NCBI GenBank assembly: GCA_963742735.1
Contig: CAVUMN010000004.1
Span: 672,001-736,000, forward strand
Length of the DNA: 64,000 nt
Direction of reading: 5' to 3'
Source of the DNA: an uncultured Actinomycetes bacterium
GTDB taxonomy: Bacteria > Actinomycetota > UBA4738 > JBBDTT01
In this document: in pieces, positions 20,713 to 28,696 of the stretch
Layout of the letters: every line of letters begins with the position of its first letter
Position numbering within the stretch: the stretch's first letter is position 1
Translations under genes and position numbers: made by a program
The notes under the pieces: generated by a model
The model's input: the letters and a program-made list of their open reading frames with translations, nothing else
Database searches by the model: none
What the model was told of the DNA's origin: nothing

Positions 20713-21654
20713 TCAGGCCGTGGCCTTGATCCCGCTCCGGCGGTCGATCTGCTCGCGGACGAAGGGGTCGGCGAGCCACGCACGTGTCGCCTCCAGCCAG
20801 CGCCCCGGCGCCTCGAGCTGCGGGACGTGGCCGACCCCGCGGACGATGCGAAGCGTCCAGTCGGGCCTCCGGCGGATGAGCTCCTGCGCCGAGCGGACCG
20901 GGACCAGCCGGTCGGCCGCGCCGTGGATCACCAGGGTCGGCGCCTGGACCGCCTCCACCATCTGCCAGGTCCGCTTCGGGGCCAGGGTTGAACGCACGAG
21001 CGTGCGCGCGGCGCGGAGGAACGCGTGCACCGCGTAGCCCATCTCGGCTCGCTCCTTCGCCAGCTCGATGTGGGCGTCCAGCACCGCGGGGTCGATCCGC
21101 GAGGGATCGACCGTGCACAGCTTCATGGTCTCGCGTACGAGCCCCTCGGGGCCGGCGCGGCGGGCGCGCCGCCGGGCCACCAGCTCGCCCAGTCCGGGCA
21201 CCACGTTCGCCGCGAACAGGGCCACGACGAGGGGATCGATGCGCGACCCCGGGGCTCGGGGGACCGCGGGGTCCGTCAGGATCAGCCCGGCCACCGACGA
21301 TCCGCCGATCGCGCCCTCCATGATCGAGATCCATCCGCCCATGGAGTTCCCGACGACGACCGCGGGACGGCCCACGACCTCCTCGATGAAGCGGTGCACC
21401 AGCTCGCGGTTCGCGTGGGGGGTCGCCGAGCGTGCGTCCAGCGGGGTGCGGCCGAACCCGGCGAGGTCGAGGGCGTGGACGGCGCCGTGCTCGGCCAGGC
21501 CGGGCGCGATCGGCAGCCAGTTCAGGAGCGATCCGCCCAGGCCGTGAACCAGGACGAAGACCGGCCCGTCCGCGGGACCATCCCAGAGGACGTGATGCAC
21601 GGGGCCGTTCAGGTCGGCCCACTGCGAGGGCGGCACGAGCTTCCTGCGGACCAT
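20713..21654 (-). CDS. Alpha/beta hydrolase
   Basis: VHGLGGS, DLAGFG, nucleophile elbow GNSMGG, HGAADRLVP, GHVPQLE. Confidence 0.9.
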   Translation of the reverse strand: MVRRKLVPPSQWADLNGPVHHVLWDGPADGPVFVLVHGLGGSLLNWLPIAPGLAEHGAVHALDLAGFGRTPLDARSATPHANRELVHRFIEEVVGRPAVVVGNSMGGWISIMEGAIGGSSVAGLILTDPAVPRAPGSRIDPLVVALFAANVVPGLGELVARRRARRAGPEGLVRETMKLCTVDPSRIDPAVLDAHIELAKERAEMGYAVHAFLRAARTLVRSTLAPKRTWQMVEAVQAPTLVIHGAADRLVPVRSAQELIRRRPDWTLRIVRGVGHVPQLEAPGRWLEATRAWLADPFVREQIDRRSGIKATA

Positions 21655-21697
21655 GTCAGCCGAAGCGTACCGGGTCGGGGGCAGAATCCGGCGCGAG

Positions 21698-21703
21698 TAC
21701 ACT
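21698..21703 (+). promoter_or_regulatory. Leaderless-type -10 box for cphB-cphA
   Basis: TACACT 7 nt before ATG 21711; no Shine-Dalgarno. Confidence 0.6.
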
Positions 21704-21710
21704 GGCTCGA

Positions 21711-22676
21711 ATGACCCCCGAAGCGGCCCGCGTGGGCGTCGTGATGGCCATCGGCGGCGCCGAGGACAAGCTTCGTGATCGCGCGATCCTCGAGCGCTTC
21801 GTGCAGCTCGCCGGCGGGACCAGGGCGCGGATCGCGATCATCAGCACGGCGTCGTCGCTCGGCGACGAGGCGACGGAGCTCTACTCCGCCCTGTTCGCCC
21901 GCGAGGGCGCGGCCGAGAGCTTCGGGTTGCGCCCCACAACGCGCGAGGAGGCCAACGACCTCGGGCTCGCCGAGCTGATCGGCGTCGCCACCGGCATCTT
22001 CATGACGGGCGGCAACCAGCTGCGGCTGGCCAGCATCGTGGGCGGGACGATCCTCGGCCAGGCCCTGCTCGACGCGCACACCCGCGGCGCGGTGATCGCC
22101 GGGACCTCCGCGGGGGCGAGCGCGATGTCCTCGCACATGATCGCCTTCGGCCGCGCCGGCGCCAGCCCGAAGCACCGGATGGTCCAGCTGGCTTCCGGCT
22201 TCGGCGTCCTGCCGGGCGTGGTCATCGACCAGCACTTCGAGCAGCGCAACCGCCTGGGCCGGCTCCTGGCCGCGGTCGCGCAGTCGCCCGGCCTCATCGG
22301 GATCGGCATCGACGAGGACACCGCGATCGTGGTCGACGACGGCGTGCTCGAGGTGATCGGCAAGGGCGCGGCGACGATCGTCGACGGGTCCCACGTCGTC
22401 ACGGACGCGTTCGTGACGAAGGGCCATCGGCCGATGATGGTCTCCGGGGCGAAGCTGCATTCGCTTCCCTCTGGGTGGCGCTACGACCTCCGGTCCCGGA
22501 CCCTCGTGCACGAGGACGGGACCCTCGAGCCCCGCGAGGCGGCGCGGCTGACGCTGGCCGGCGAGCGAGCCCGGAAGCTGGCGCGCCGGATCGCCGCGGA
22601 GGGAGCCGACGACCGGGCCCCCGAGCGCGCGGAGAAGCGCCGGGAACGGGAGCGCCGCCGGGAGGCCTCGGAGTGA
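21711..22676 (+). CDS. cphB: Cyanophycinase (peptidase S51)
   Basis: IGGAEDK, FMTGGNQLRL, AGTSAGAS (catalytic Ser), IDQHFEQRNRLGRL, GIDEDT; overlaps the cphA start by 4 nt (GTGA). Confidence 0.95.
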   Translation: MTPEAARVGVVMAIGGAEDKLRDRAILERFVQLAGGTRARIAIISTASSLGDEATELYSALFAREGAAESFGLRPTTREEANDLGLAELIGVATGIFMTGGNQLRLASIVGGTILGQALLDAHTRGAVIAGTSAGASAMSSHMIAFGRAGASPKHRMVQLASGFGVLPGVVIDQHFEQRNRLGRLLAAVAQSPGLIGIGIDEDTAIVVDDGVLEVIGKGAATIVDGSHVVTDAFVTKGHRPMMVSGAKLHSLPSGWRYDLRSRTLVHEDGTLEPREAARLTLAGERARKLARRIAAEGADDRAPERAEKRRERERRREASE

Positions 22677-25501
22677 GCGCGGTCCGCAAGGAGGACGTCC
22701 CCGCCCCCAAGAAGCCGGCGAAGAAGCGGGCGCCGAAGCCCACGCCGGGGCCGAAGGTGGCGAAGCTCCAGCCCGACCTGACGATCCTCGAGTCGCGCGT
22801 GTACCGAGGCCCCAACTACTGGTCGTACGAGCCGTGCATCCGCCTGCTGGTGGACCTCGGCTCGCTCGAGGAGTGGCCCTCGAACACGATCGCCGGGTTC
22901 ACCGAGCAGCTCCTGGACCTGTTGCCCGGCCTCCAGGACCACGCGTGCTCGCTCGGCCGGCGGGGAGGCTTCGTCAAGCGGCTCCGGGACGGGACGTGGG
23001 CGGGCCACGTCGCCGAGCACGTGGCCCTGGAGCTCCAGCGCGAGACCGGGACGGAGATCCGCCGAGGAAAGACGCGCGGCGCCGACGCCACCGGCCAGTA
23101 CAACGTGATCTACGGCTACGCCGAGGAGACCGTCGGCCTGACCGCCGGCCGGCTCGCGGTGAAGCTCGTGAACCATCTCGTCGAGGCGGATCCCGGCTTC
23201 GACTTCGTCGCCGAGCTCGAGTCGCTGATCCTGCTCGCCGAGCGGGCCGCCTTCGGCCCGTCGACCCAGGCGCTGATCGACGAGGCCGTCTCCCGGGACA
23301 TCCCCTTCATCCGGCTGAACGAGGCCTCGCTGGTCCAGCTCGGGCAGGGCGTCCATCAGAAGCGGATCCGGGCCACGATGACCTCGGCCACGCCGGCGCT
23401 CGCCGTCGACATCGCGGGCGACAAGAAGCTGACCAACAAGCTTCTGGGTGCGGCCGGCGTCCCCGTTCCCAAGTCGCAGGTCGTCCGGGAGGAGGACGAG
23501 GCCGTCCGGGCGGCGCGCGGGATCGGGTTCCCGGTGGTGACCAAGCCGCTCGACGGCAACCACGGCCGGGGGGTCTCCATCGACCTGCGGACCGACGCCG
23601 CCGTCCGCAAGGGGTTCCGCCTGGCCCGCGAGCAGACCCGCGGCGGGCGCGTCGTCGTCGAGACGTACATCGCCGGCAACGACTACCGGGTCCTGGTGAT
23701 CGGCGGCGTCATGGCGGCGATCGCCGAGCGCGTGCCGGCCCACGTGACCGGCGACGGGACGCAGACGGTCGCCCAGCTCCTGGAGGAGACCAACGCCGAC
23801 CCCCGGCGGGGGATCGGTCACGAGAAGGTCCTCACCAAGATCAAGCTCGACGACGAGTCGGTCGCGCTGGTGAAGGGGCAGGGCTACGCGATGGACGACG
23901 TGCCCCCCAAGGGCGAGATGGTGAAGCTGAAGCTGACCGGCAACATGAGCACCGGCGGGATCTCCATCGACCGGACCATGGAGGCGCATCCCGACAACGT
24001 GGAGATCGCGGAGGAGGCCGCGCGCGTGACCGGGCTCGACGTGGCCGGGATCGACTTCATCACCCCGGATATCTCGACGCCGGTCCGCGAGACGGGCGGC
24101 GCGATCGTCGAGGTCAACGCCGCGCCGGGCTTCCGGATGCACACCAATCCCACCGAAGGCGAGCCGCAGTACGTGGCCAAGCCGGTGCTGGACCTCCTGT
24201 TCCCGGCCGGCGCCTCCTCGCGCATCCCGATCGTCGCGGTGACCGGATCGAACGGGAAGACGACGACGGTGCGGATGATCGCCCACATCTTTCGCGGCAT
24301 GGGCCGCAAGGTCGGGATGACCTCGACCGACGGCATCTACATCGACGAGCGCCTGGTGAAGAAGGCCGACGCCAGCGGCCCGAAGTCCGCGCAGATGGTC
24401 CTGCAGAACCCGCGGGTGGACTTCGCCGTGTTCGAGGTCGCCCGCGGCGGCATCCTTCGAGAGGGCCTCGGCTACGGCCGCAACGACGTCGCGGTCGTCC
24501 TGAACGTGACCGGGGACCACATGGGCCTCGGCGAGGTGAAGTCGATCCGCCAGCTGGCCGCCGTGAAACGGGTGATCGTGGAGGCCGTCCCGCGTGGAGG
24601 GACCGCGGTCCTCAACGCCGACGACCCCCACGTCGCGGAGATGCGCAAGCACTGCTCGGGCTCGATCGTGTTCTTCTCGATGGAGCCGAACAACGAGCTC
24701 GTCGAGCGCTACGTCCGCCGGGGGGGCCGGGCGGCGGTCCTGGGTGAGGGCGCCCACGGCGAGATGATCGTGATCCGCGACGGGCGGCGGACCATGCCGC
24801 TGGCCTACACCCACCTGCTTCCCGCGACGTTCGGCGGGCGGGCCCGGATGAACGTCCAGAACGCGCTCGCCGCCACCGCCGGCGCGTATGCGGCCGGCGC
24901 GCACCTGCACGACATCCGTCAGGGGCTGCGGACGTTCTCCACCAGCTACTACCAGGCGCCGGGGAGGCTGAACCTGTTCGAGCTGGATGGCGTGAAGGTC
25001 GTCGTGGACTACGCGCACAACCCCGCGGCGCTGCAGGCCGTCGGCCAGTTCGTCGACTCCATGACGTCGTCGCTGGGCGAGTGGCAGGCCGGTCTGCGGC
25101 TGGGGGTGATCGCCACGCCCGGCGACCGGCGCGATCAGGACGCCCGCGAGATCGGCAAGATCGCCGCCCGGTACTTCGACGAGATCATCGTGCGCGAGGA
25201 CCGCAACCTCCGGGGCCGCGAGCCCGGCGAGACGGCCGGCCTGATCGTCGAGGGGATCCGCCAGGAGATGAAGAAGGGCGCCCGCTGCGGGTCCGTCCAG
25301 GTGGTCCTCGAGGAGATGGAGGCCACCCGCACGGCGCTCGACCGGAGTCGTTCGGGCGATCTGGTGGTGCTCTGCATCGACTACGCGACCGACGTGTGGG
25401 CCGAGCTGCAGGACCGCCTCGAAAACGCGAAGGCCGGCGTGGGCGGCGTGCCGCCCGGGGCCGGGCGCGAAGGCGACCCCGACTTCGGCCGCCCCGTCTA
25501 G
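22673..25501 (+). CDS. cphA: Cyanophycin synthetase CphA1
   Basis: N domain RGPNYWS with Cx19HxxEH (CSLG...AGHVAEH); ATP-grasp FGPST, KPLDGNHGRG, NMSTGG, EVNAAPGFRMH; Mur domain VTGSNGKTT, EVARGG, PGRLN, DYAHN. Confidence 0.97.
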   Translation: MSAVRKEDVPAPKKPAKKRAPKPTPGPKVAKLQPDLTILESRVYRGPNYWSYEPCIRLLVDLGSLEEWPSNTIAGFTEQLLDLLPGLQDHACSLGRRGGFVKRLRDGTWAGHVAEHVALELQRETGTEIRRGKTRGADATGQYNVIYGYAEETVGLTAGRLAVKLVNHLVEADPGFDFVAELESLILLAERAAFGPSTQALIDEAVSRDIPFIRLNEASLVQLGQGVHQKRIRATMTSATPALAVDIAGDKKLTNKLLGAAGVPVPKSQVVREEDEAVRAARGIGFPVVTKPLDGNHGRGVSIDLRTDAAVRKGFRLAREQTRGGRVVVETYIAGNDYRVLVIGGVMAAIAERVPAHVTGDGTQTVAQLLEETNADPRRGIGHEKVLTKIKLDDESVALVKGQGYAMDDVPPKGEMVKLKLTGNMSTGGISIDRTMEAHPDNVEIAEEAARVTGLDVAGIDFITPDISTPVRETGGAIVEVNAAPGFRMHTNPTEGEPQYVAKPVLDLLFPAGASSRIPIVAVTGSNGKTTTVRMIAHIFRGMGRKVGMTSTDGIYIDERLVKKADASGPKSAQMVLQNPRVDFAVFEVARGGILREGLGYGRNDVAVVLNVTGDHMGLGEVKSIRQLAAVKRVIVEAVPRGGTAVLNADDPHVAEMRKHCSGSIVFFSMEPNNELVERYVRRGGRAAVLGEGAHGEMIVIRDGRRTMPLAYTHLLPATFGGRARMNVQNALAATAGAYAAGAHLHDIRQGLRTFSTSYYQAPGRLNLFELDGVKVVVDYAHNPAALQAVGQFVDSMTSSLGEWQAGLRLGVIATPGDRRDQDAREIGKIAARYFDEIIVREDRNLRGREPGETAGLIVEGIRQEMKKGARCGSVQVVLEEMEATRTALDRSRSGDLVVLCIDYATDVWAELQDRLENAKAGVGGVPPGAGREGDPDFGRPV

Positions 25502-25783: not shown

Positions 25784-27505
25784 TCATTCTCTCCCGCGCC
25801 CCCTGGCCGCGAGCGTCCGTACCCGGGCCGGGGTCAGGCGGCGCGCGCCCGCCGCGTCCAGCCACGCGAACACCTCCGGCCGCATCGCGAGGGCGGTGAC
25901 CGCGACCACGTCCCCCCGCGCCGACGCCTCGAGCATCGAGCCCAGCGCGACCACCTCGTCGGGGTGGATGTCGATCTCCTGCGCGCCCCCGTCCACCGCT
26001 CCGGCGCGCATCCGGTCGATCAGCTCCTGCCGGTCGCGGCCTCGCAAGTACCGCAGGAGCTCGGCGATGCCGACCCGGTCGGCCCTCCGCGCGGCGATGT
26101 AGCCCAAGCCGTGCAGGATCGCGTCGCTGCGGTCGCCCGCCGCGGCGATGGTGATCCACACCCGCCCCCCGGGCTTATGGAGCCCGGTGCAAACCTCCAG
26201 CAGTCCCTCCAGTCCGGCCTCGTTGTGCGCGTAGTCCACGACGACGACGCGGCCGTCGAGCTCCCACAGGTTCATCCGCCCCGGGTTGCGCTCCGGATCC
26301 AGGACGAACGTCCGCAGCCCGTCCAGCACCGCCGTCTGGGGGAGGCCGGCGCCCAGCGCCGCCGCCGCGGCCGCCATCGCGTTCGCGAGGTTGATCGAGG
26401 ACAGGCCGGCGATCGTCATCGGCACGTCCAGGGTCGGCATCAGGTGACGGACCCGGCTGCCGGTGAGGAGGGCCAGGTCCCCGTCGACCACCGAAAGGGC
26501 CCGGCCGCCCTCGTCGAGGGTGGCGCGGATCCACGGGTTGTCCGGGCTGAGCGCGAACGCGAACGCCCCGGCCGGGGACAGCCGCCCCATCGCGATCACC
26601 CGCGGGTCGTCGGCGTTGAGCACCGCCCAGCCGTCGCGCTTGGTGATGCGCGTGATCGTGGCCTTCACCTCGGCGAGCTGGTCGAGCGTCTCGATCCCGT
26701 GGAGCCCGAGATGGTCGGCCGACACGTTGGTGACGACCGAGACGTCGTTGTAGGCGGTGCCGATGCCCCGGAGGAGGATCCCGCCCCGGGCGGTCTCCAG
26801 GATCGCGAGCTGCACGCCCGGCTGCGCGAGGGCCATCCCCGCACCGCCGAACCCCGAGTAGTCGCCCTCCTCCACGCGTTCGTCGTCCAGATAGACGCCG
26901 TCGGTGCACGAGTACGCGGTGACCAGTCCGGCGGTCCGCCCGATGTGGGAGAGGAGGCGGACGACCGTGGTCTTCCCGTTCGTTCCGGTGACCTGGATCA
27001 CCGGGATCTTCGGGCGAGGGAGCGAGGGCCGCGCGCCGGGGTCGACACGGACCAGGCGCCGGGCGGCGTCCTCGACCGCGCGGTCGATGGGACCCCGGGC
27101 CGAGACGGCCCGCTCGAGCAGGCCCTCCAGGAGCGGGGCGAGGGCGGTGGCCGTCCCGCGGTTGCGCCACGGGTAGGCGAGCACGACCTCGTCGGCCGCG
27201 GCCCCGGCTCGCCACCGGACCCCCACGCGCACCTTGCGCGCGAGGGCGACGCGCCGCGCGAGGTGGGCGGCCAGCCGGGCCACGAACCGCCGGCGGTGAT
27301 CGGTCCCGGGCGGCCCGGGCGCGATCGAGGCGGGGAGGGCGGCGTTGCGGGCGGCCCTGGCGGCTCGTTCCTCGGTGAGGTCGAGCCAGCCGGCGACCGA
27401 CATCGTCAGCTTCACGGCGGGACGGGTGAAGTAGAGGTTCGGTCCGTCGAGGACACGAACCTCGGTCACCCGTGCGAGCGGCGAACGCGCCGGACCCCGA
27501 GACAC
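25784..27505 (-). CDS. CphA-derived Mur-ligase protein (degenerate N domain + M domain, no ATP-grasp)
   Basis: 573 aa from GTG 27505: EVRVLDGPNLYF (matches the CphA N-terminus), then directly IPVIQVTGTNGKTT, TDG, GDYSG, LETARGGIL, NVSADHLG, LNADD, PGRMN, DYAHN, GDR. Confidence 0.85.
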   Translation of the reverse strand: MSRGPARSPLARVTEVRVLDGPNLYFTRPAVKLTMSVAGWLDLTEERAARAARNAALPASIAPGPPGTDHRRRFVARLAAHLARRVALARKVRVGVRWRAGAAADEVVLAYPWRNRGTATALAPLLEGLLERAVSARGPIDRAVEDAARRLVRVDPGARPSLPRPKIPVIQVTGTNGKTTVVRLLSHIGRTAGLVTAYSCTDGVYLDDERVEEGDYSGFGGAGMALAQPGVQLAILETARGGILLRGIGTAYNDVSVVTNVSADHLGLHGIETLDQLAEVKATITRITKRDGWAVLNADDPRVIAMGRLSPAGAFAFALSPDNPWIRATLDEGGRALSVVDGDLALLTGSRVRHLMPTLDVPMTIAGLSSINLANAMAAAAAALGAGLPQTAVLDGLRTFVLDPERNPGRMNLWELDGRVVVVDYAHNEAGLEGLLEVCTGLHKPGGRVWITIAAAGDRSDAILHGLGYIAARRADRVGIAELLRYLRGRDRQELIDRMRAGAVDGGAQEIDIHPDEVVALGSMLEASARGDVVAVTALAMRPEVFAWLDAAGARRLTPARVRTLAARGRGRE

Positions 27506-27529: not shown

Positions 27530-28696
27530 GTGGATGCCACCGCCATGCTCCAGGCCGCGCAGCGCGGCTACGACCGCTTCCTCGACGACCTTCGTTCCCT
27601 GGTCGGTCTCGATTGCGGGTCGTTCACTCCCGAGGGCGTGAACCGAGTGGCCCAGTTCTGCGAGGACCGCCTGGGCGGGCTGGAGTTCGAAACGCGCCGC
27701 GTCCCGCACGTCCAGGCTCCCGGCGAGGCCGAGCTCGGGGACTGCGTCGTCGCCACCCGCGCCGGTGCCGGAGGCCCCCGCTACGTCCTGATCGGGCACA
27801 TGGACACGGTCTTCCCCGAGGGGACCGCCGCCGCCCGCCCGTTCAGAATCGAGGCAGACCGGGCGTTCGGGCCCGGGGTGTGCGACATGAAGGCGGGACT
27901 GCTCGCCGGCTTCCACGCGCTGGAGATCCTGTTCGAGTCCGGGTGGGACCGGTTCGGCGAGGTGGCGTTCGTGTGCAACCCCGACGAGGAGATCGGCTCG
28001 ACGTTCTCCGGGCCGGTCATCCGGCAGGTCGCCGAGGGGCGCGACGTCTCCTTCGTCCTGGAGTGCGCCCGAGAGACCGGCGCGATCGTCTCCGCGCGCA
28101 AGGGGACCACCGGGGGGCCCATCGAGGTGGTCGGTCGCAGCGCCCACGCCGGTGTGGAACCCGAGCGGGGCCGCAGCGCCATCCTCGCGGCGGCGCATCT
28201 CATCCGCTCCCTCCACGATCTGAACGGCCGGTGGCCGGGGGTGACCCTGAACGTGGGCGTCATCGAGGGGGGGACGCGCCCCAACGTCGTCCCGGACCGA
28301 TGCCGGATGGAGATCGACATCCGCGCGCCCGAGGCGGCGTCGTTCGACGCGGCCAAGTCCGAGGTCGAGGCGATCGTGGCCGGGGTGCCGCTCGAGTGCA
28401 CCGCGGCGATCCGCTGGTACGGCGAACACCGGCCCATGGAGCGGACGGAGGCGACCGCCCGGCTGGTGAAGGAGGCGCAGGCCGCCGCGCTCGAGCTCGG
28501 GATCGGGGACCTGCCGGAGGCGGCGACCGGTGGGGCCTCGGACGCGAACACGACGGCGGGGATGGGGATCCCCACCCTCGACGGGCTTGGGCCGGTCGGC
28601 GGTGCCCCCCACTCCGACGACGAGTGGCTGGACCTCTCGAGCGTCGTCCCCAGGGTCGCGCTGCTCGCGCGTCTGATCGAGCGCGTGGGCGGGTAG
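27530..28696 (+). CDS. M20 family metallopeptidase (glutamate carboxypeptidase-like)
   Basis: GHMDTVF, GPGVCDMKAG, PDEEIGS, VLEC, GRSAHAG, NVVPD, GGASDAN, GLGPVGG.PH. Confidence 0.92.
   Translation: MDATAMLQAAQRGYDRFLDDLRSLVGLDCGSFTPEGVNRVAQFCEDRLGGLEFETRRVPHVQAPGEAELGDCVVATRAGAGGPRYVLIGHMDTVFPEGTAAARPFRIEADRAFGPGVCDMKAGLLAGFHALEILFESGWDRFGEVAFVCNPDEEIGSTFSGPVIRQVAEGRDVSFVLECARETGAIVSARKGTTGGPIEVVGRSAHAGVEPERGRSAILAAAHLIRSLHDLNGRWPGVTLNVGVIEGGTRPNVVPDRCRMEIDIRAPEAASFDAAKSEVEAIVAGVPLECTAAIRWYGEHRPMERTEATARLVKEAQAAALELGIGDLPEAATGGASDANTTAGMGIPTLDGLGPVGGAPHSDDEWLDLSSVVPRVALLARLIERVGG

Follow-up and report, generated by a model that had tools for sequence, protein, structure and literature searches.

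A cyanophycin synthetase paralog without an ATP-grasp domain, encoded beside a complete cphA1 in an uncultured actinomycete, as a candidate stand-alone side-chain ligase

Introduction

Synthesis of the nitrogen-storage polymer cyanophycin is taught as the work of the cyanophycin synthetase CphA1 alone, or of CphA2 acting on dipeptides, and a Cx19HxxEH motif is found in about 80% of CphA1s. Here we describe a gene in a stretch of 64,000 nucleotides from an uncultured Actinomycetes bacterium (contig CAVUMN010000004.1, assembly GCA_963742735.1; this whole stretch is called the window below), which encodes a CphA paralog made of the N and M domains only, without the G (ATP-grasp) domain, and which lies beside a complete cphA1. 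We refer to the gene and its product as N+M.

The closest described system is CphA1 itself, known from the structures of Synechocystis sp. UTEX2470 (7LG5, 7LGQ, 7TXV) and Trichodesmium (7WAE). The N+M protein shares with it the N-domain fold, the GPN loop packing on the M domain, the core and lid of the M domain, the ATP, Mg and catalytic residues, the mutual orientation of the N and M domains, 38% identity within the M domain and a place in a cyanophycinase cluster. In contrast to CphA1, the N+M protein has no G domain, the ATP-grasp module of about 320 residues which extends the aspartate backbone, and it cannot polymerise because this domain is absent; it also has no Cx19HxxEH motif, scores 350 bits in comparison to a family cut-off of 850, and belongs to a separate and old clade. 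CphA2 is likewise, in passages of PMC10273328 and PMC9262961, a CphA paralog in reduced form, left with a single catalytic domain and with a non-catalytic N domain that has no peptidase motif, and yet the reduction is the opposite one, with the G domain kept and the M domain truncated and inactive in CphA2, and the M domain complete and the G domain gone in N+M. The MurC, MurD, MurE and MurF ligases, FolC and the pseudomurein ligases resemble N+M in the Pfam families PF08245 and PF02875, the P-loop, the expected acyl-phosphate chemistry and the structure (Z of about 24 to 27). They differ in that the CphA N domain of N+M replaces their N-terminal Rossmann domain, which binds UDP-MurNAc (uridine diphosphate N-acetylmuramic acid), in that MurE models score N+M below their cut-offs, and in that CphA-specific residues are present in N+M.

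Two CphA-family genes side by side are also described for Betaproteobacteria, as 'Group 1' in section 3.3 of PMC10687191. In those tandem pairs the second copy keeps the N and G domains with a short M match (query 1 to about 238), in contrast to N+M with its full M domain and no G domain. Among the loci that we collected, such pairs were seen in Nitrosomonas europaea, other Betaproteobacteria and one Polyangiaceae (L066-L069, L073, L075, L080, L081, L093), with the N+G copy bearing the short M match placed before the full cphA1 and with neither cyanophycinase nor N+M in the flank; the CphA1s of these pairs form a clade of their own, apart from the CphA1s that are partnered with N+M. No published description of the N+M architecture was found in the full-text literature searched, which included term look-ups in PMC10206079 and PMC9974463; 'cyanophycin' together with 'Mur ligase family protein' gave 0 papers in full text, and 'CphA3' gave an unrelated resistance-gene paper only. 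A passage of PMC10687191 mentions a 'shorter copy' of cphA in two metagenome-assembled genomes (MAGs) of Tetrasphaera, expressed less than the longer copy; this shorter copy might be an N+M gene.

Results

Domain architecture and predicted structure

Translation of the N+M gene between its GTG at 27505 and its stop at 25784 gives a product (P0006) of 573 residues, and a database copy of 561 residues (P0007, GTG start at 27469) is 100% identical to it. The Pfam search matched Mur_ligase_M (PF08245, residues 172-383, 73.1 bits, cut-off 24) and Mur_ligase_C (PF02875, residues 409-537, 39 bits, cut-off 28.4) alone, so that the protein belongs to the Mur ligase superfamily by the Pfam cut-offs. No ATP-grasp family was matched at E<=0.01, in comparison to at least six in the neighbouring CphA1 in the same search. 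The cyanophycin synthetase model TIGR02068 gave 350.4 bits (cut-off 850), over model positions 477-848 only, in comparison to about 102 to 104 bits for MurE models (TIGR01085, 101.6 bits, cut-off 257.3); membership in MurE is contradicted both by the score below cut-off and by the CphA-type N-terminal domain. CphA1 chains in the PDB scored 415 to 470 bits in comparison to at most 127 bits for MurE, and BLASTP against the neighbouring CphA1 gave 38% identity in the M domain (E 1e-63).

The N-terminal part was matched by no Pfam family when residues 1-171 were searched alone at E<=10, and PF18921, the Pfam model of the CphA N domain, found no match in the protein. Because of this, its homology was established by profile-profile and structural comparison. 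BLASTP of residues 8-101 against the CphA1 N domain gave a weak collinear match (E 0.01), and hhalign aligned the N domains of 30 N+M rows and 16 CphA1 rows over 140 columns (97.9% probability, E 3.2e-13). An R-x-L-x-G-P-N loop is nearly invariant at the N-terminus of 31 family members with identities down to 30%, and G21 and N23 are invariant; the counterpart of this loop in SuCphA1 (Y14, I17) packs on the M domain, as described in a passage of PMC9262961. The peptidase site Cx19HxxEH of the CphA1 N domain is gone: in the hhalign alignment the loop that bears the Cys is deleted, and R..AH stands in place of HxxEH, with H79 replaced by R and E82 by A. A regular-expression scan saw Cx19HxxEH in most partner CphA1s and in no scanned N+M open reading frame (ORF), and HxxEH in none of the scanned N+M proteins save two short ones which group with CphA1. 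As judged from these alignments, N+M lacks the cryptic metallopeptidase site of CphA1.

The AlphaFold2 model, built on the 31-member alignment, has a predicted local distance difference test score (pLDDT) of 94.8 and a predicted template-modelling score (pTM) of 0.92. Its best Foldseek matches are the CphA1 structures 7lgj, 7lgq, 7lg5 and 7wae (E 2e-39 to 1.5e-36, query TM-score (TMq) 0.77 to 0.79, about 878 columns) in comparison to E 8e-21 for MurE. VIA-align superposed model residues 11-556 onto the CphA1 chain from residue 1 to about 872, with 522 to 527 of the 573 residues aligned and the G domain skipped (Z 36.4 to 42.3, root-mean-square deviation 3.2 to 4.8 A), in comparison to Z 26.9 for the best Mur ligase, MurE. 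In the predicted model, N+M matches CphA1 in both domains and in their mutual orientation, and the G domain is missing. The protein has the N and M domains of CphA1 without its G domain, its Cx19HxxEH motif and the 850-bit score of TIGR02068, and assignment to CphA2 is contradicted by the missing G domain and the full-length M domain.

An earlier note, made from the letters of this stretch, had read here an N-terminus parallel to that of the neighbouring CphA1, running straight into an intact Mur-like domain with neither ATP-grasp motifs nor Cx19HxxEH. Pfam, hhalign, Foldseek and VIA-align agree on this architecture, hhalign and the superposition bear out the parallel N-terminus, and the scores of TIGR02068 and the MurE models, together with the tree described below, place the M domain with CphA and not with MurE, MurF or FolC. 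All of the motifs which it named were found in the translation, namely EVRVLDGPNLYF at residues 15-26, VTGTNGKTT at 172-180, GDYSG at 214-218, LETARGG at 236-242, DHLG at 264-267, PGRMN at 408-412 and DYAHN at 424-428; the window's CphA1 carries ESRVYRGPNYWS, and Cx19HxxEH is read directly in it. The note had also seen no decay, and the frame is indeed intact, the codon bias as strong as that of the neighbouring genes and the fold confidently predicted.

Conservation of the M-domain active site

The N+M protein keeps the P-loop K178 and T179, E237, D264-H265, R410, H427, G457-D458-R459 and R488. The equivalents of TeCphA1 K499, T500, E558, R731 and H748 and of SuCphA1 D585 and H586 are invariant in the 31 N+M members, so that the P-loop Lys, the Mg ligands and the Asp-His pair which mark a CphA1-type M domain are all present (K178, T179, E237, D264-H265, R410 and H427). 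The roles of these TeCphA1 and SuCphA1 residues in ATP binding, Mg binding and catalysis are described in section 10 of PMC9427784 and in PMC9262961, and passages of the same two papers report that mutation of the Asp-His pair of CphA1 abolishes M activity.

To compare the active sites, 48 N+M rows were set against 32 CphA1 M-domain rows. All 53 columns that reached a conservation of 85% or more in each of the two groups bore an identical residue; at a threshold of 60% or more, 105 columns were the same and 2 were different (G221 in comparison to S, and A456 in comparison to P). Many of the residues in these columns are missing from the MurE and MurF of this genome, and so are R183, D215, the ARGG loop and RGR, which N+M and CphA1 have in common; the GDR and RGR lid motifs are likewise common to N+M and CphA1. 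Two residues, R246 (88%) and N407 (92%), are conserved in N+M only.

Family size and association with cphA1

The word-indexed protein search gave 7927 significant proteins among 8000 candidates scored. The 120 relatives listed were all of 540-614 residues, with 58-100% identity and 94-100% coverage, and they are named 'cyanophycin synthetase' by the Joint Genome Institute (JGI) and 'Mur ligase (family protein)' from Actinomycetota by NCBI; the language-model protein atlas holds generic names only for N+M relatives. In the exhaustive search of cluster representatives, 9939 proteins passed a threshold of E<=1e-3 and 1175 passed one of E<=1e-30. Many proteins of 530-590 residues among them align end to end with N+M at identities down to about 35%, and a second set of 560-610 residues was matched from the M domain only. 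As judged from these homologs, N+M is a large, old and widespread family with thousands of members and not a one-off. The window's protein shows the characters of the clade, that is, a length of about 540-610 residues, an N-terminal RxLxGPN, lack of HxxEH, an M domain of CphA type that is complete, and a position within the clade, and in the window it is partnered with cphB and cphA1. One family member (P0129, 745 residues) has a C-terminal tetratricopeptide repeat domain (PF12688, residues 622-740).

In a sample of 401 genomes of the phylum, searched with a hidden Markov model (HMM) of the 31-member N+M alignment and then with TIGR02068, an N+M match was found in 41 genomes (35 full length and 6 fragmented, split or at contig ends); two of the 401 genomes, G088 and G343, are unpublished, and the count is 39 of 399 without them. 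The same 41 genomes, 41 of 41, have a CphA1-type match (query 156-545 in a frame of 900-1300 residues) and match TIGR02068, 38 over the cut-off and 3 where contig ends break the CphA1 gene. Neither N+M nor CphA1 is present in the remaining 360 genomes, and seven further genomes gave weak MurE-like matches only with the N+M HMM. This co-occurrence extends over at least eight groups of family level. The pair, or parts of it, lies on one contig in 40 of the 41 genomes, at distances from 49 bp to about 11 kb, and most pairs are convergent, with three in tandem (G242, G294, G327). In one genome (G376:C9:264212-265868) the N+M match is in two adjacent pieces (query 2-183 and 184-552), a split which we ascribe to a frameshift or sequencing error.

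In all 20 actinobacterial loci that were fetched, tblastn found the N+G part of CphA1, the CphA1 M domain and the N+M gene. Cyanophycinase was found in 18 of these, the regions of the other two ending too early, and a major facilitator superfamily (MFS) transporter adjoins N+M in 6. A scan for a sister subfamily, with one genome per species, gave 80 loci, of which 69 (L059-L127) were classified. Its full-length loci, 7 of 7, have cphB and cphA1 adjacent, and in 6 of the 7 the three genes form a same-strand cphB-cphA1-N+M array. The seven come from a gammaproteobacterial MAG, Plesiocystis pacifica SIR-1, Steroidobacteraceae, Planctomycetaceae, Lysobacterales, Thermoanaerobaculia and Luteimonas lutimaris, and operons of the sister subfamily occur in Gammaproteobacteria, Myxococcota and Planctomycetota. 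The actinobacterial type of N+M was found near cphB-cphA1 in Kribbella, Terrabacter, other Actinomycetes and a Chloroflexia MAG. CphA1 stood without N+M in its flank in 46 of the 69 classified loci, from Bacteroidota, cyanobacteria and the Betaproteobacteria with their own tandem pairs.

Phylogeny of the N+M family and of its partner CphA1s

In the tree of M domains (82 rows, quick IQ-TREE search with posterior mean site frequencies, PMSF), the 48 N+M rows come together in a single clade, separate from every CphA1 M domain, with 88 in the Shimodaira-Hasegawa-like approximate likelihood ratio test (SH-aLRT), and the actinobacterial CphA1s are placed inside the CphA1 part. Forcing the actinobacterial N+M and the actinobacterial CphA1s together costs 229 log-likelihood units, with a p of 1.9e-116 in the approximately unbiased (AU) test. 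A recent local duplication of the neighbouring cphA1 is rejected by this tree and test. Five short proteins (P0190, P0221, P0255, P0238, P0262) are nested within clades of CphA1 and may be independent G losses or fragments. Two of them, P0238 (611 residues) and P0262 (599 residues), have a CphA1 N domain with Cx19HxxEH and a first stretch of the G domain before the M domain, and could represent independent G-domain deletions or fragmentary gene calls.

The N-terminal region of the sister subfamily aligns with CphA1 residues 1-197, including the first 40 or so residues of the G domain. This vestige favours descent of the N+M family from a CphA1-like ancestor with all three domains, N-G-M, through loss of the G domain, as read from the alignment; the reverse, an origin of CphA1 from an N+M ancestor by insertion of the G domain, is disfavoured by the vestige, under a weak rooting. 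Two genomes of the actinobacterial family f13 (L053 from G294 and L054 from G327) have tandem cphB-cphA1-N+M arrays in which both proteins are of the gammaproteobacterial type in both trees, so that the module appears to have moved as a unit, and lateral transfer of the whole cphB-cphA1-N+M module to these genomes is suggested by the tree positions.

In the tree of full-length CphA1s (68 rows, FastTree), the 22 partnered CphA1s all belong to a single clade, which has 28 rows and a support of 99 and is called clade P here. Six rows of this clade are without a partner; two of these are cut at contig ends, and one of them (L086) has a partial N+M match at the contig edge. The CphA1s of clade P, the window's and 34 others, are changed at positions which are 92 to 100% invariant in other CphA1s. 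The substitutions in the G domain are K to N or T, G to S or Q, D to W or F, and R to Q. In the M domain, the Gly of the GD motif is changed to A, V or S in 24 of 35, in comparison to N+M, which keeps this Gly invariantly, and the adenine-stacking Phe (F692 of TeCphA1) is changed to M or H in 30 of 35. The changed residues in the window's CphA1 (P0003) are N321, S334, M502, Q565, A631, N670 and M792. These substitutions may reflect co-adaptation or a weakened site of the enzyme's own, and, with the GD Gly kept in N+M, they hint at subfunctionalisation.

The gene and its neighbours in the window

The features of the locus are listed in Table 1. The window has a G+C content of about 72%, and because of this its six-frame ORF lists are full of spurious frames. 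The N+M reading frame stays open up to 28612 (an ORF of 942 residues), and by codon-position GC the minus-strand frame is backed from about 25800 to 27400, the upstream part of the long ORF being antisense to the plus-strand M20 peptidase gene. The codon bias of N+M equals that of the neighbouring genes in strength. Rfam and tRNA scans of the window gave no match, and a search of sequencing runs with the N+M stretch gave no RNA run and four DNA runs from soil metagenomes, with 0.05 to 0.10 of the words.

Table 1. Features of the cyanophycin locus in the window
Feature	Coordinates	Strand	Evidence
cyanophycinase cphB, peptidase S51	21432..22676	+	PF03575; TIGR02069 241.9 bits (cut-off 126.6)
partner cphA1, complete N-G-M, with Cx19HxxEH	22673..25501	+	TIGR02068 1169.6 bits (cut-off 850)
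ORF for PGPGW-family membrane protein, 92 residues	25498..25776	-	PF09656 65 bits; codon-position GC
N+M gene, CphA paralog without G (ATP-grasp) domain	25784..27505	-	open frame, Pfam, NCBIfam, AlphaFold2
M domain of N+M, Mur-ligase core and lid, residues ~166-545	25871..27010	-	Pfam, TIGR02068, BLASTP, structure
N domain of N+M, residues ~12-155	27041..27472	-	CphA N-domain fold, RxLxGPN loop; hhalign, VIA-align
M20 metallopeptidase, glutamate-carboxypeptidase-like	27545..28696	+	PF01546, PF07687; PRK06133 299.8 bits (below cut-off 349)

The source genome (3.08 Mb in 5 contigs, 88.9% complete) has one CphA1 and one N+M gene, and the TIGR02068 score of the former, above the cut-off, agrees with the complete synthetase which the earlier note had seen beside N+M. 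The two genes are convergent, tail to tail, and not in tandem, with 283 bp between their stops. The cphB gene lies directly upstream of cphA1; its coordinates are those of the longest ORF, and its true start is probably later. The start of cphA1 is uncertain, with the longest ORF beginning at 22475 and the family model matching from 22784; the roughly 100 additional codons upstream of this match (22475-22784) form a stretch rich in Arg, Pro and Lys, and the cyanophycinase stop shares bases with a GTG at 22673 (GTGA), leaving the N-terminal extension of cphA1 uncertain.

The ORF of the PGPGW family, resembling TIGR02611, lies on the strand of N+M and begins 7 nt past the stop of that gene, and its 3' end has a 4-nt overlap with the stop of cphA1. 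It was rejected as a conserved partner, as tblastn at E<=10 found nothing significant beside N+M in other loci. The M20 gene is divergent from N+M across a spacer of 40-75 bp. The two genes adjoin each other in a Chloroflexia locus (L125) and in 5 of the 20 loci from actinobacteria (L047-L051); the M20 gene is absent from most loci and was rejected as a universal partner. Its product could be a cyanophycin-related peptidase.

Discussion

On balance it seems probable, from the comparisons above, that N+M is a stand-alone cyanophycin side-chain (arginine) ligase which acts in trans and depends on ATP; the earlier note had likewise proposed a stand-alone side-chain ligase, a reading that the computation supports. 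What the comparisons show is the architecture, the fold, the conserved catalytic residues, the linkage in genomes and the parallel phylogeny. The activity, the substrates and the reason for a second M module are inferred, and so is the mechanism below, from Mur-ligase and CphA1 chemistry. The near identity of the conserved M columns, 105 the same and 2 different, makes arginylation of aspartate in trans its most likely function. N+M is the complete substrate-binding unit for the arginylation step, in that it keeps, in the same mutual orientation, just those two modules which in CphA1 hold the cyanophycin chain at the arginine-adding site (the N domain, and the core with the lid of the Mur ligase). 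In the mechanism proposed, N+M would bind a cyanophycin chain bearing an aspartate without arginine, ATP at the site of the P-loop, E237 and D264-H265 would activate the beta-carboxylate of this aspartate as an acyl-phosphate, and the alpha-amino group of L-arginine would attack the acyl-phosphate to form the isopeptide bond. Its partners in trans would be the complete CphA1s of one dedicated clade, encoded with cyanophycinase in the same cluster. The need for it could be the completion of Asp-ended or under-arginylated chains, or the supply of M activity to partner CphA1s whose M and G sites carry substitutions.

A further proposal, which we hold more tentatively and think rather doubtful, is that cyanophycin synthesis in a large group of heterotrophs, with members in the Actinomycetota, Chloroflexota, Gammaproteobacteria, Myxococcota, Planctomycetota and Acidobacteriota, is an obligate work of two enzymes, in which the CphA1 clade with altered sites is joined by N+M doing a step that no single CphA1 does. 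This step might be the arginylation of internal or released Asp-ended chains, or the addition of a second kind of residue, and if the proposal were true, either would amount to a polymer, or to a point of control, that has yet to be described.

Several observations weigh against a trans-acting arginine ligase. The partner CphA1s keep all of the catalytic motifs of their M domains, which leaves the need for a second M module unexplained. R246 and N407 could mean a different acceptor or substrate, and the specificity for the amino acid may lie in less conserved positions. The 41 genomes with the pair are kin and not independent samples, so that the co-occurrence is a pattern and not a statistic; in one of them (G196) CphA1 and N+M are on different contigs, and three loci (L079, L100, L111) have N+M and no cphA1 within the DNA fetched. 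The support of the N+M clade is moderate (the SH-aLRT value given above comes from a quick search), the root on MurE and MurF is weak (69), and the group that the AU test forced together was defined with the tree already known.

Among the alternatives, a ligase of different specificity seems to us unlikely. Such an enzyme would place Lys, Orn, citrulline or Glu on aspartate, or would use another carboxylate such as the alpha-carboxylate of arginine, extending a branch from the side-chain Arg as MurC to MurF extend the peptide stem and giving a decorated polymer. Mur ligases diversify mainly in substrate choice, the N+M-specific R246 and N407 agree with such a change, and the M20 peptidase, where its gene is divergent from N+M (the window, 5 of 20 loci and L125), could remove a residue of this kind. 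Against this stand the conserved columns, with 0 differing at 85% and 2 of 107 at 60%, the GDR and RGR lid motifs shared with CphA1, and the absence of the M20 gene from most loci. The suggestion of the earlier note that a different amino acid might be added is disfavoured by this near identity with CphA1.

Improbable, too, is a primer synthase, which would use free Asp and Arg to make beta-Asp-Arg, or primers that are very short, for the de novo start of chains by CphA1. In a passage of PMC9262961 the true de novo activity of CphA1 is proposed to be very low and (beta-Asp-Arg)-Asp to be the minimal primer, and the N domain of N+M has no primer-generating peptidase site; most partner CphA1s, however, including the window's, have Cx19HxxEH and would be self-priming already by the published criterion, and retention of the whole polymer-binding N domain in N+M argues for a polymer as substrate.

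Strict co-occurrence and co-phylogeny with one CphA1 clade would also be expected of a protein that joins the CphA1 oligomer as a subunit with a regulatory or non-catalytic role, and M domains take part in the interfaces of that oligomer according to passages of PMC9262961 (W672A) and PMC10273328. We regard this as very improbable, since the ATP-binding and catalytic residues are all invariant at identities down to 30%, which is unexpected for a scaffold. A complex prediction for the CphA1 M domain (A3 residues 577-985) with N+M gave a best score of 0.21 in comparison to a mark of 0.32, which speaks neither for nor against co-assembly. No more credible is a Mur-type ligase for a substrate other than cyanophycin, lying near cphA1 by chance or through shared regulation. 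The three loci with no cphA1 in the fetched flank would fit it, but co-occurrence in 41 of 41 genomes in comparison to 0 of 360, the operon position in four other phyla, and the CphA-specific R183, D215, ARGG loop and RGR, all lacking in the MurE and MurF of this genome, speak against it. Finally, an assembly artefact or a decaying cphA1 copy without its G domain can be dismissed, the frame being intact, the codon bias like that of the neighbours and the fold confident, with the architecture kept in thousands of proteins, in all 120 listed relatives and in 35 full-length copies among the 401 genomes.

None of the computational observations that the earlier note would have counted against its reading was made: the M domain groups with CphA, the homologs are linked to cphA1 in the sampled genomes, in 20 of 20 fetched loci and in 7 of 7 sister loci, and the missing G domain is no assembly deletion. 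Its description of the protein as a mirror image of CphA2, without the G domain and with a full-length M domain, is upheld as well.

Conclusions

N+M is a variant within the cyanophycin synthetase kind which is common in databases, generically named and functionally unstudied. It is a conserved third gene in the cphB-cphA1 clusters of six phyla and, in the sampled Actinomycetota, is present in every genome with cphA1, which implies an unrecognised step or a division of labour in the synthesis of this nitrogen-storage polymer. Metagenomic counts of 'cphA' are inflated because JGI names N+M genes 'cyanophycin synthetase'. As a natural and soluble-looking enzyme of the M module only, N+M would separate side-chain ligation from backbone extension for study, and it is a candidate tool to tailor or complete cyanophycin in bioproduction. 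For the family, the comparison suggests a three-domain enzyme that was dismantled both ways in evolution, with CphA2 keeping the G domain and the N+M family keeping the M domain.

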